32,000 nt of DNA from contig OZ007020.1 in NCBI GenBank assembly GCA_963931495.1, positions 390,001-422,000 on the forward strand, written 5' to 3'. Under the pieces are notes generated by a model. It did not search any database. It had not been told where the DNA came from and worked only from the letters and a program-made list of their open reading frames with translations. Origin of the DNA: an uncultured Alphaproteobacteria bacterium (GTDB lineage: Bacteria > Pseudomonadota > Alphaproteobacteria > Rs-D84). Below are positions 3,274 through 4,742 of this stretch, one piece after another. The first letter of the stretch is position 1. The number at the start of each line of letters is the position of its first letter. Both the position numbers and the translations under genes were made by a program.

Positions 3274-3441
3274 ATAAAAAACCACCAGAAAAAATCTAAG
3301 TGGTTGGAGGTTGATTACTATGAAAGATATAGTGCCGCTTATTCAATATATTCACGACCCTCCAACCAAACAGGTTGGAATTTCATCCAATGGATGTCTT
3401 TCAGGGGTAATCACACCCCGCAACAGCAACCCGCCATTGCA
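3274..3441 (-). ncRNA. Unclassified structured RNA (leader or sRNA), copy A
   Basis: Minus-strand reading, from the TSS region after TATAAT:
- hairpin GGGGT-GTGATT-ACCCC
- hairpin CATCC-ATT-GGATG
- hairpin TTCCAACC-TGTTT-GGTTGGAGGG
- GTGAATATATTGAATAAGC
- hairpin ACTAT-ATCTTTC-ATAGT
- AACCTCCAACCAC
- terminator CCACTTAGA/TCTGGTGG followed by TTTTTT

It ends about 20 nt before the ATG at 3252. Ends are approximate. Confidence 0.5.
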
Positions 3442-3447
3442 GATGCT

Positions 3448-3476
3448 ATTATAAAAATCCGTTTTGTTTATTGCAA
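3448..3476 (-). promoter_or_regulatory. Promoter of RNA copy A
   Basis: On the minus strand: TTGCAA (3476-3471), 17-nt spacer, TATAAT (3453-3448). Confidence 0.5.
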
Positions 3477-3586
3477 TTTGTTTTTTGTCATAAATTGTAA
3501 TAATTTTGTACTGATAAAAATATTGTCATTTTGCCATTTTTAATACGTCCCTGATTTTTGGGATTTTCCATCGGTATTTTTAATAA

Positions 3587-3615
3587 AAAATCCCACCGAA
3601 TGGTGGGATTTTTTT
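3587..3615 (+). terminator. Intrinsic terminator hairpin in the leader of the downstream barrel gene
   Basis: AAATCCCACC-GAAT-GGTGGGATTT followed by a T-run (3609-3615). No coding gene lies upstream on either strand that it would obviously terminate. It sits 52 nt before the ATG at 3668. Confidence 0.55.
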
Positions 3616-3667
3616 GCGGACTTTGTTCTTGTTGTTTATGTTTGCACAGACGTGTAATTATTGTGGT

Positions 3668-4432
3668 ATGGCGCATGGTATAAAATTATTTTTAATATTT
3701 ACGGTATGCTATATTGCTGGATACTCATGCGCACATGCCGCGCGATTGGATGTCAGTCGTATCAGTCAATCTGGTGAATTTTCTGCATCGTTTGGTGCGG
3801 CGTTCAAGACTGGTGCAAATCGTGATAATACGACCCAAACAGATTTTTTATCTGGACGTATACATGAATTATCACTGGATTTGGATTATACTTTTTTAGA
3901 TGATTGGACGATTTCATTCAGCACGGACAATGATTATTCTGATTCACAGATTGGTGTAAAGTGGAAGCTGATAAAATTTCATGAACTGAAAATTGATTTT
4001 ATGGCGGACTATGGCATTGCATGGACAAAAAACGCCAAAACAGATGTACGTTTGGGGAATAATAATTTTGATTTTGGAATGCGTGTTCATGGTATTGCGT
4101 TGCAGGATTTTCAATGGGCAGTGAAAATCATGGGCCAGTTTGTATTTGCAGAACCAAAAAACTTTTGGAATATAAATCTGACCGCAGAAGCGATGTATTA
4201 TTTCCATCCAGATATTGCCGCCAAGTTTGAATTTGAATATGACTTTAATCAGATTAGTGCACCAATAACACAATATGATCGCACAATTCATTTTGGAATA
4301 ATATATAATATGTCTAATATTGCGTCAGTGCATCCTTATGTAAAATATCACTTTAAGACCGATACAGCAGACAATAATTATATTCCCGATAATTTTTGGA
4401 AAATTGGGGCAGAGTTTTCAGTAGAATTTTAA
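3668..4432 (+). CDS. Outer-membrane beta-barrel protein (about 254 aa), size-matched paralog of 2260..3022
   Basis: Signal peptide MAHGIKLFLIFTVCYIAGYSCAHA|A from the internal ATG at 3668. The track start at 3614 is a TTG inside the terminator hairpin. It shows an alternating aromatic pattern and a C-terminal ...GAEFSVEF. The start codon is uncertain because the SD is weak. Confidence 0.7.
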   Translation: MAHGIKLFLIFTVCYIAGYSCAHAARLDVSRISQSGEFSASFGAAFKTGANRDNTTQTDFLSGRIHELSLDLDYTFLDDWTISFSTDNDYSDSQIGVKWKLIKFHELKIDFMADYGIAWTKNAKTDVRLGNNNFDFGMRVHGIALQDFQWAVKIMGQFVFAEPKNFWNINLTAEAMYYFHPDIAAKFEFEYDFNQISAPITQYDRTIHFGIIYNMSNIASVHPYVKYHFKTDTADNNYIPDNFWKIGAEFSVEF

Positions 4433-4524
4433 GCATCTATGATGGTGGTTTGACGCATAATGCATAACAATTAATTTTTGGATTGTGTTGTACTTGCCGG
4501 TAAAGGTTTATGATAAAAATTTGC

Positions 4525-4554
4525 TTGGATTTTTATACAAATATAAATTATAAT
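4525..4554 (+). promoter_or_regulatory. Promoter of RNA copy B
   Basis: TTGGAT (4525-4530), 18-nt spacer, TATAAT (4549-4554). Confidence 0.45.
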
Positions 4555-4560
4555 ATTTTT

Positions 4561-4742
4561 TGTGGCGTTGGATTAACGCCATGGGGTGTCAAGACCCGAA
4601 ATGCGGCGTTGCGGTATGCGACGATAAAGCTCCAACCATTGGTTGGAGGGCTGTGAATAATGCGTTTACGCAAAATAAGCACACTATACCGTATTGTAGT
4701 CTTGAACCTCCAACCACTTGAAAATTCTTTCAGTGGTTTTTT
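4561..4742 (+). ncRNA. Unclassified structured RNA (leader or sRNA), copy B
   Basis: Elements in order:
- hairpin GGCGTT-GGATT-AACGCC
- hairpin GGGT-GTCAAG-ACCC
- hairpin CGTTGC-GGTAT-GCGACG
- hairpin CTCCAACC-ATT-GGTTGGAGGG (4630-4650)
- GTGAATAA...AATAAGC
- hairpin ACTAT...GTAGT
- CCTCCAACCAC (4706-4716)
- terminator CCACTTGAAA/TTTCAGTGG followed by TTTTTT (4713-4741)

It ends 16 nt before the ATG at 4758. Ends are approximate. Confidence 0.5.

Follow-up and report, generated by a model that had tools for sequence, protein, structure and literature searches.

The window analyzed here is a 32,000-nucleotide (nt) stretch of DNA from an uncultured alphaproteobacterium of the Rs-D84 lineage (GenBank assembly GCA_963931495.1, contig OZ007020.1, positions 390,001 to 422,000), and positions are counted from its first letter. 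It carries three copies (A, B, and C) of an RNA element that, in all likelihood, belong to a lineage-specific family of ∼170- to 190-nt cis-acting terminator/antiterminator 5′ leaders. Members of the family share a conserved unit consisting of a promoter, the leader, a terminator, a Shine-Dalgarno (SD) sequence, and an open reading frame (ORF). The leader itself combines a junction fold with alternative hairpins and a three-strand switch that overlaps the terminator. The family appears to be previously undescribed; the kind of mechanism, a terminator/antiterminator leader, is already known.

All three copies were recovered when the window was searched with a covariance model of the family with filters off. 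Copy A scored 149.6 bits (E value, 3.5e−33), copy B 148.7 bits, and copy C 127.9 bits over a match spanning 25227-25423, each with an E value of ≤1e−28. The next match reached 16.8 bits, and no fourth copy was found. The window contains six occurrences of the octamer GGTTGGAG, compared with 0.48 expected, and folding z-scores against shuffled sequences were −4.6 for copy A and −5.8 for copy B; together with the covariance model scores, these values discount a chance origin. An earlier reading of this DNA from its letters (here, the first-pass annotation) had proposed two full-length copies on opposite strands, and copies A and B do align from end to end, promoter and SD sequence included. Every feature it listed was located in the sequence: the TATAAT ahead of both copies, the motifs GUGAAUA and AAUAAGC, the conserved hairpin (U/C)UCCAACC-loop-GGUUGGAG, a hairpin at the same position with unrelated stems in the two copies (CAUCC/GGAUG versus CGUUGC/GCGACG), a second copy of CCUCCAACC, an intrinsic terminator with six U residues, and a GGGGG-type SD sequence and ATG after each terminator. 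The span 3274-4742 also takes in an unrelated outer membrane protein (OMP)-like ORF at 3614-4432 that lies between the divergently oriented copies A and B.

The description of the RNA as unclassified was upheld. When the window was compared with Rfam 15 (4,227 models) at gathering score, the only match was a tRNA at 824-897, and the loci of 16 relatives, which hold more than 20 copies, matched tRNAs only. At an E value of ≤10, positions 3000-5000 gave nothing credible over copy A or B (rli43, 15.5 bits; U5, 20.1 bits; Histone3, 18.8 bits). Full-text literature searches on Enterousia, Rs-D84, and the motif strings turned up no account of the leader, and those on the strings gave only unrelated primers and aptamers.

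Using the pattern TCCAACC-N2-8-GGTTGGAG-N3-7-GAATA and one genome per species, at least 120 loci were identified. Among the matches listed, nearly all were in “Candidatus Enterousia” or in metagenome-assembled genomes (MAGs) labeled uncultured Alphaproteobacteria/Rickettsiales, the host animals being human, ruminant, horse, chicken, and mouse (gut samples), and a single MAG carried at least six loci. A covariance model was then built from 119 copies. It found extra copies that the pattern misses, with more than 130 matches at an E value of ≤1e−9 in ∼0.97 Mb of Enterousia/Rs-D84 loci and several copies per genome. Pattern matches in Roseibium (L119) and Desulfuromusa (L127) were discarded as chance, and an association with phages was rejected, as the covariance model bore out none of the three pattern matches in IMG/VR viral contigs. 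Enterousia is assigned to the order Rs-D84, whose uncultured members live in the gut of humans and farm animals and have genomes of 0.75 to 1.0 Mb that lack the tricarboxylic acid cycle, respiration, flagella, and standard transporters, and they are presumed to depend on other organisms (PMC12306168).

That the element is a functional structured RNA, as first proposed, is borne out by helices whose pairing persists across more than 115 homologues despite sequence change. In a model-based alignment (A3), 95.9% of cells were standard pairs, and the covariation score was 0.577 compared with 0.183 for shuffled alignments, none of 500 of which reached it; sliding the pairing partners reduced the score to at most 0.074. 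A structure-blind MAFFT alignment (A2) gave 92.9% paired cells (76.3% when shuffled) and a covariation score of 0.465 (0.167 when shuffled; 0 of 500 reached it), falling to ≤0.077 with partners slid. Overall, 93 to 96% of cells were paired and covariation scores ranged from 0.47 to 0.60, compared with 0.17 to 0.19 after shuffling. Pairs of the G-U/U-G type (253) exceeded those of the A-C/C-A type (39), and the structure can therefore be ascribed to this strand as RNA.

The helices are laid out for copies A and B in Table 1. The 5′-terminal hairpin P0 was 97% paired with four to six pair types per position. Helix P1, formed by strands b and e, was 99.3% paired (for example, AU53 CG36 GC15 UA8 and AU51 GC26 UA24 CG11). 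Helix P1a, formed by strands c and d, is hypervariable, with 104 distinct d sequences in 116 copies, and its pairing was evident from duplex energies: cognate c:d duplexes averaged −7.5 kcal/mol and noncognate ones −2.1 kcal/mol, and −6 kcal/mol or lower was reached by 78% of cognate but 3.6% of mismatched duplexes. Together, P1 and P1a total 13 to 15 bp and close a four-way junction bearing the hairpins P2, P3, and P4. P2 was 91% paired and covarying (CG53 UA36 UG14), as was P4 (96.6%; GC54 UA34 CG19). The P4 loop carries two motifs, YGAAUA and AAUAAR, that are ≥97% conserved and that in ∼20% of copies, B included, are split by a variable hairpin. The terminator helix also covaries (AU79 GC33).

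The secondary structure in the first-pass annotation corresponds to one of two conformations, and the more stable four-way junction had been overlooked, along with P0. Its GGGGT/ACCCC hairpin (S1) and its ACTAT hairpin (S3) are both present and covary. Their loops are not free but supply strands of long-range helices: the S1 loop residues UGAUUA in copy A and UCAAGA in copy B, which it had listed as different loops, pair with UAAUCA and UCUUGA just 5′ of the second CCUCCAACC, and the S3 loop is a strand of P1a. The loops of these two local hairpins thus double as helix strands, which is why P1 and P1a had escaped notice.

S1 and S3 have covariation of their own. The second pair of S3 (A3 columns 306:325) is UA60/AU51 without any one-sided change, and counts for S1 pairs were GC79/GU16/AU12 and GC102/GU7/AU3. 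Strand d follows the 5′ arm of S3 by 0 to 3 nt and adjoins its 3′ arm directly (0 nt). Since d is the S3 loop and is bounded by such short spacers, coexistence of S3 and P1a would demand a pseudoknot geometry that appears unattainable, and S3 is thus predicted to exclude P1a. As S3 nevertheless covaries, two folds seem to be under selection. Other contacts were also considered. An extension of P1 (GGGGU:ACCUC) that appears in minimum free energy (MFE) folds of single sequences found no support, as A3 columns 71:335 and 72:334 show no pair covariation. Columns 72:304 do covary (UA51, CG31, UG18, other 12); these columns hold the pyrimidine that follows GGGG in S1 and the purine that precedes CUAU in S3 (3415/∼3334 in copy A and 4587/∼4682 in copy B), and a tertiary or pseudoknot contact between them is possible. 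A mutual-information scan for a kissing interaction between the P0 and P4 loops gave no signal, which is attributable to the invariance of GAAUA.

At the center of the element is a strand with two partners. The 3′ arm of P3, GGUUGGAGG, is complementary both to the P3 5′ arm, CUCCAACC, and to the downstream segment f, CCUCCAACC. Its duplex with f, the antiterminator, is a perfect 9-bp helix with no bulge, and the ninth pair was GC93, UA21, UG3, and other in 2. Four variant types, which come from copies retrieved by the covariance model only, are altered consistently on all three strands: CUCCUGAC/GUCAGGAGG/CCUCCUGAC (in two MAGs), CCCCUGUC/GGCAGGGGU/ACCCCUGUC, CUUCUGC/GCAGGAGG/CCUCCUGC, and GGUUGGAGA/UCUCCAACC. 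The GGAG/CUCC half of the switch was constant across all variants. The switch strands are otherwise frozen, because three-way compensation is needed. Copies with variant triplets precede the same kinds of genes as canonical copies. Such “specificity classes” were found at L102:499-729, L053:4985-5229, L118:6173-6377, and L023:6035-6235 (all on the minus strand), and they share a MAG, or even a single 8-kb locus, with canonical copies.

Segment f also reaches into the terminator. The overlap was 4 nt in 83 and 3 nt in 12 of 103 copies, placing AACC at the base of the stem in 95/103, and a U-tract (≥5 U among the 9 nt following the stem) followed in 99/103. When RNAs were truncated at f, the decision point, MFE structures contained P3 in 111 and P1 in 107 of 112 copies, and the antiterminator in one. 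Forcing the antiterminator cost a mean of 12 kcal/mol at this point and 15 kcal/mol at full length. Given that the closed state, with the junction formed, is far more stable, termination would be the thermodynamic default, and read-through would need help.

A co-oriented ORF was found behind 112 of the 119 copies, and in 103 of those it starts ≤100 nt from f (median, 49 nt between the f 3′ end and the start codon). These ORFs begin ∼10 to 25 nt past the U-tract, nearly all with an SD sequence. Because they start so close to f, there is no space for a further promoter; this had been argued for copies A and B, where the gaps between terminator and ORF are 23 and 15 nt, respectively. In the family alignment, the spacing between the −10 box and P0 is conserved, and the −10 box of copy B aligns with the family box. 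Approximately 59 of the downstream products have a signal-peptide or transmembrane-like N terminus, ∼28 are small XRE-type helix-turn-helix (HTH) proteins, and the rest are orphans. Pfam searches with 108 downstream proteins gave few matches (HTH_31/19/3, Flg_new, Ephrin_rec_like, and YadA_anchor); most of these 108 proteins are orphans, and no coherent pathway or group of transporters that would point to a ligand emerged from them. The 61-amino-acid protein behind copy A had no Pfam match, and its family profile matched HTH structures in the PDB weakly (5v5t; E value, 0.005); from its sequence it may be called XRE-like at best. Orthologues of this protein follow a leader copy in at least 14 MAGs. 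The cysteine-rich protein behind copy B matched Ephrin_rec_like (E value, 1.9e−7). Among the commonest genes behind the leader are those for a recurring secreted protein family (L026, L058, L092, L094, L011, L050, and L102), whose members have ∼65 to 80 amino acids, the motif ..S(T/S)TYVE..T..KVD.S.TANQTMAGTYTVSG.., and no Pfam match.

Copy C, which lies directly after the rplQ terminator, is not followed by an ORF in its own orientation; the DUF3419/methyltransferase-like gene that ends at 25545 is convergent. Copy C carries noncanonical pairs or mismatches in P0, S1, P4, and b:e (GUUAUUAA versus UUAAGAAC) and a mismatch to the antiterminator strand in f (ACUGCAACC), and its c:d duplex reaches only −4.1 kcal/mol. 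This decay fits relaxed selection after loss of the regulated gene and therefore favors cis action. A cis-acting leader, the option preferred in the first-pass annotation, is the best-supported reading, resting on adjacent co-oriented ORFs and on the covariation of the three strands.

These features suggest how the leader could act. Each copy would be transcribed from its own σ70-type promoter and would attenuate transcription of the gene immediately downstream. In the closed state, P0 would form together with the four-way junction, with P1 and P1a stacked and with hairpins P2, P3, and P4; f would then be left unpaired, its AACC would enter the terminator stem, and polymerase would stop at the U-tract. 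In the open state, GGUUGGAGG would exchange CUCCAACC for f, the bottom 3 to 4 bp of the terminator would be lost, and polymerase could read into the SD sequence and the ORF. S1 and S3 would form in this state, S3 being sterically incompatible with P1a. An effector, whether a small ligand, a protein, or another RNA, would favor the antiterminator, with the P4 loop (YGAAUA...AAUAAR) and the P3 and f strands as the likeliest recognition surfaces. We infer which state is “on,” the place of S1 and S3 in the read-through state, and the existence of the effector. A protein or RNA factor is slightly more likely than a small ligand, in view of the strong termination default, the invariant platform, the resemblance of the bipartite P4 loop to a protein site, and a regulon of surface proteins and regulators.

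The kind of leader can be placed by comparison with known systems. Tests for Rfam families, T-box leaders, targets of ANTAR proteins or ribonucleic antiterminators (RATs), and leader-peptide attenuators were all negative for this family. Riboswitch leaders of the S-adenosylmethionine type SAM-I (RF00162) likewise have a four-way junction with a P1-type closing helix and one or more further long-range pairs, along with an intrinsic-terminator platform, a strand shared with the antiterminator, and multiple copies per genome. Unlike in these, the closing helix here is 13 to 15 bp and the shared strand is part of hairpin P3, not of P1; the platform shows no variation, the promoter is conserved with the RNA, there is no Rfam match, and the downstream genes are metabolically incoherent. 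The 1:2/2:3/3:4 arrangement of trp-type attenuators is reproduced by the anti-antiterminator CUCCAACC, the antiterminator GGUUGGAGG, and the terminator strand, CCUCCAACC followed by ACCAC..., but no leader peptide is present (the GUG is not conserved), and the sensing domain would be a large junction with two alternative hairpins. T-box, RAT/co-antiterminator (RAT/CAT), and ANTAR leaders resemble the family in having termination as default and in standing ahead of many genes of one regulon. They differ from it in that here there is no T-box match in Rfam or specifier feature and the antiterminator lacks a bulge; the S1 loop is ∼9 nt and the S3 loop 7 to 12 nt, unlike in ANTAR or RAT targets, and these hairpins lie ∼100 nt apart with neither overlapping the terminator.

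Of the explanations for how the switch is thrown, antitermination dependent on a factor stands best, at somewhat less than an even chance. Here an RNA-binding protein, or an RNA bearing the GGUUGGAGG or CCUCCAACC strands, would stabilize the antiterminator on the nascent leader, with termination as the ground state in the manner of RAT/CAT, ANTAR, or countertranscript systems. Such help would suit the strong thermodynamic default to termination, and the sequence GAAUA-N4-5-GAAUAA, or its halves split by a hairpin, resembles a bipartite protein site. Within a genome the switching strands are identical, with rare self-consistent variant classes in the same genomes, and surface proteins together with regulators are typical of a global regulon. 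Nevertheless, the double hexaloop hairpins of ANTAR targets, RAT sequences, and Rfam matches are absent, and the downstream XRE-like proteins look, weakly, like DNA-binding HTH proteins.

Control by a small molecule or second messenger is a possible but doubtful alternative. A ligand bound at the junction or at the P4 internal loop would shift the balance between the closed and antiterminator states. The leader has, as riboswitches do, a covarying structured domain in the 5′ untranslated region and an expression platform that shares a strand with that domain, and it is aptamer-like in its four-way junction, in the unpaired purines conserved in P4, and in having one or more additional long-range pairs. 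Multiple copies per genome and tandem copies are likewise known for c-di-GMP, glycine, and T-box elements. However, the 13- to 15-bp closing helices are stable without a ligand, the platform is uniform, with the same terminator design in every copy, and the promoter and leader travel together. In addition, the gene context indicates no metabolite, and the majority of the conserved positions belong to the switching helix, not to the junctions.

It is unlikely that the element is a stand-alone, trans-acting small RNA (sRNA), for which CCUCC would pair with SD sites in mRNAs and proximity to ORFs would be incidental. Each unit does have its own promoter and a strong U-tailed terminator, CCUCC is complementary to SD sequences, and orphan copies without a downstream ORF exist (copy C in the window and the first members of tandem arrangements). 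Multicopy alphaproteobacterial RNAs with CCUCC motifs, their own promoter, and a Rho-independent terminator, like the leader, include the alpha-r14/alpha-r15 “cuckoo” RNAs in Rfam. Unlike those RNAs, the leader has no Rfam match, and it stands at a fixed short distance upstream of ORFs; its CCUCC pairs intramolecularly and covaries. The sRNA explanation is disfavored on account of this fixed place, 112 of 119 copies preceding a co-oriented, SD-bearing ORF 10 to 25 nt past the U-tract that lacks a promoter of its own, and of the covariation of CCUCCAACC with its internal partner, by which CCUCC is better explained. One variant turns CCUCCAACC into ACCCCUGUC, the orphan copy C is decaying, and no Rfam sRNA family matched.

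A repeat acting at the DNA level (an integron attC-like site, a repetitive extragenic palindrome [REP], or a miniature inverted-repeat transposable element) or a leader-peptide attenuator is highly improbable: CUCCAAC/GUUGGAG is superficially like RYYYAAC/GTTRRRY, the copies are multiple and sit beside small ORFs of unknown function, and many have GUG after GGAGG, but attC and REP repeats are rejected by the dispersion of the copies (no ORF-repeat arrays, one copy in most 8-kb loci, and A and B divergent), the multibranched fold, the conserved promoter/−10 box and U-tract, and the strand-specific wobble, and the viral-contig matches lacked covariance model confirmation. The leader peptide was discarded because ∼35 copies have GCG in place of the GUG and the site behaves as base-paired sequence (UA44/UG36/CG32), and variable-length hairpin inserts in the P4 loop would shift any frame.

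Several observations weigh against the cis-acting terminator/antiterminator leader. Termination, read-through, and the 5′ end of the RNA are inferred. The overlap between antiterminator and terminator is just 3 to 4 nt, and the computed advantage of the closed state, 12 to 15 kcal/mol, would make spontaneous switching unlikely. P3 is almost invariant in sequence, which stems in part from collecting copies with a pattern that contains P3, and the covarying pair 72:304 has no assigned place in either conformation. The heterogeneous downstream genes (secreted, XRE-like, and orphan) give no clue to a ligand. Tandem leader pairs, and one triple, occur in relatives (L081:2327-3040 [minus], L103:363-799 [plus], L068:3376-3773 [plus], and L109:5553-5970 [minus]), with an ORF only behind the last copy; in L103 and L109, a −10 box of its own precedes the downstream member. 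The first members in L103, L081, and L109 are intact and ORF-less (e.g., L103:363-553), so that decay is not universal among copies lacking an ORF, and this would also fit an independent sRNA.

As a terminator/antiterminator leader, the element would be the first recognizable global regulatory element for the Enterousia/Rs-D84 lineage, with a single RNA design preceding the genes for many secreted or surface proteins specific to the lineage and for small transcription factors. It would define a regulon for otherwise unannotated genes, which are predicted to be off by default and to be induced together. For RNA biology, it adds an orphan class of more than 130 members with strong covariation, a three-strand switch with triple compensatory changes, and two covarying folds that appear mutually exclusive. 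More speculatively, the leader might be a new riboswitch class or an RNA-RNA device built on three shared strands that senses a signal derived from a partner, the host, or a second messenger, and that, in dozens of copies per ∼1-Mb genome, serves as a master switch of the secreted/surface proteome and small XRE regulators in Rs-D84.

Table 1. Positions of the leader copies, their elements, and the ORFs behind them in the 32,000-nt window
Copy	Feature	Positions	Strand	Details
A	Whole leader RNA	3441-3276	minus	Predicted 5′ end at ∼3441; U-tract ends at 3276
A	Promoter	3476-3448	minus	−35 TTGCAA (3476-3471), 17-nt spacer, −10 TATAAT (3453-3448); promoter scan, 10/12
A	P0, 5′-terminal hairpin	3440-3420	minus	GCAAUGGC-GGGUU-GCUGUUGC
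A	S1, local hairpin	3419-3404	minus	GGGG-UGUGAUUA-CCCC
A	Strand b	3413-3407	minus	UGAUUAC, inside S1 loop; half of P1
A	Strand c	3403-3397	minus	UGAAAGA; half of P1a
A	P2 hairpin	3396-3384	minus	CAUCC-AUU-GGAUG
A	P3 hairpin	3380-3360	minus	UUCCAACC-UGUUU-GGUUGGAG; 5′ arm (3380-3373) is the anti-antiterminator
A	Antiterminator strand	3367-3359	minus	P3 3′ arm and the next G
A	P4	3358-3334	minus	GUCG...CGGC, conserved loop UGAAUAUAUUGAAUAAG
A	S3, local hairpin	3332-3318	minus	CUAU-AUCUUUC-AUAG; loop is strand d
A	Strand d	3327-3321	minus	UCUUUCA; pairs with c to form P1a
A	Strand e	3318-3312	minus	GUAAUCA; pairs with b to form P1
A	Segment f	3310-3302	minus	CCUCCAACC; final 4 nt in terminator stem
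A	Terminator	3305-3276	minus	AACCACUUAGA-UUUUUUC-UGGUGGUU and U-tract
A	SD sequence	3262-3257	minus	GGGGGA
A	ORF behind copy	ATG 3252, stop 3067	minus	61 amino acids; small protein, at best XRE-like
B	Whole leader RNA	4562-4742	plus	From covariance model and folding
B	Promoter	4549-4554	plus	−10 TATAAT; weak −35 TTGGAT (4525-4530)
B	P0	4562-4582	plus	
B	S1	4583-4597	plus	Strand b at 4589-4595
B	Strand c	4600-4606	plus	P1a is AAUGCGG:CCGUAUU
B	P2	4607-4623	plus	CGUUGC/GCGACG
B	P3	4630-4648 (5′ arm, 4630-4637)	plus	
B	P4	4650-4684	plus	Carries inserted hairpin GCG-UUUA-CGC
B	S3	4684-4699	plus	CUAU..AUAG; strand d at 4689-4695
B	Strand e	4699-4705	plus	
B	Segment f	4707-4715	plus	CCUCCAACC
B	Terminator	4712-4742	plus	U6
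B	SD sequence	4747-4754	plus	GGGGGUGG
B	ORF behind copy	ATG 4758, to 5324	plus	188 amino acids; signal peptide, Cys rich
C	Degenerate full-length copy	25243-25417	plus	Located after rplQ

The remainder of the window holds the str/S10/spc/alpha ribosomal protein operons, which run from rpsL (5616) through rplQ (24631), with leaders B and C flanking this super-operon. The tRNA at 824-897 (plus strand; 64.9 bits in Rfam) lies upstream of mltG/yceG. Two elements composed of an A-tract, a GC hairpin, and a U-tract, both perfect, resemble bidirectional terminators: one at 3043-3068 (aaaatcccgccgtgtggcgggatttta) lies between convergent genes, and the other at 3577-3617 (aaaaaatcccaccgaatggtgggattttttt) lies between the copy A promoter and the OMP-like ORF at 3614-4432. 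The plus-strand ORFs at 2260-2484 (74 amino acids, with a signal peptide) and 2543-3022 (159 amino acids) are given as two genes in the public assembly; they look like one β-barrel OMP, a paralogue of that at 3614-4432, split by a stop codon or frameshift. Large secreted cysteine-rich paralogues are arranged in tandem at 26527-32000 (plus strand), the first at 26527-29403 (958 amino acids) and the next from ∼29.4 kb. They share blocks of 96 to 97% identity (300 and 152 nt, at spacings of 2,825 and 2,882 nt) amid blocks of 71 to 75% identity, a pattern that suggests patchy gene conversion.

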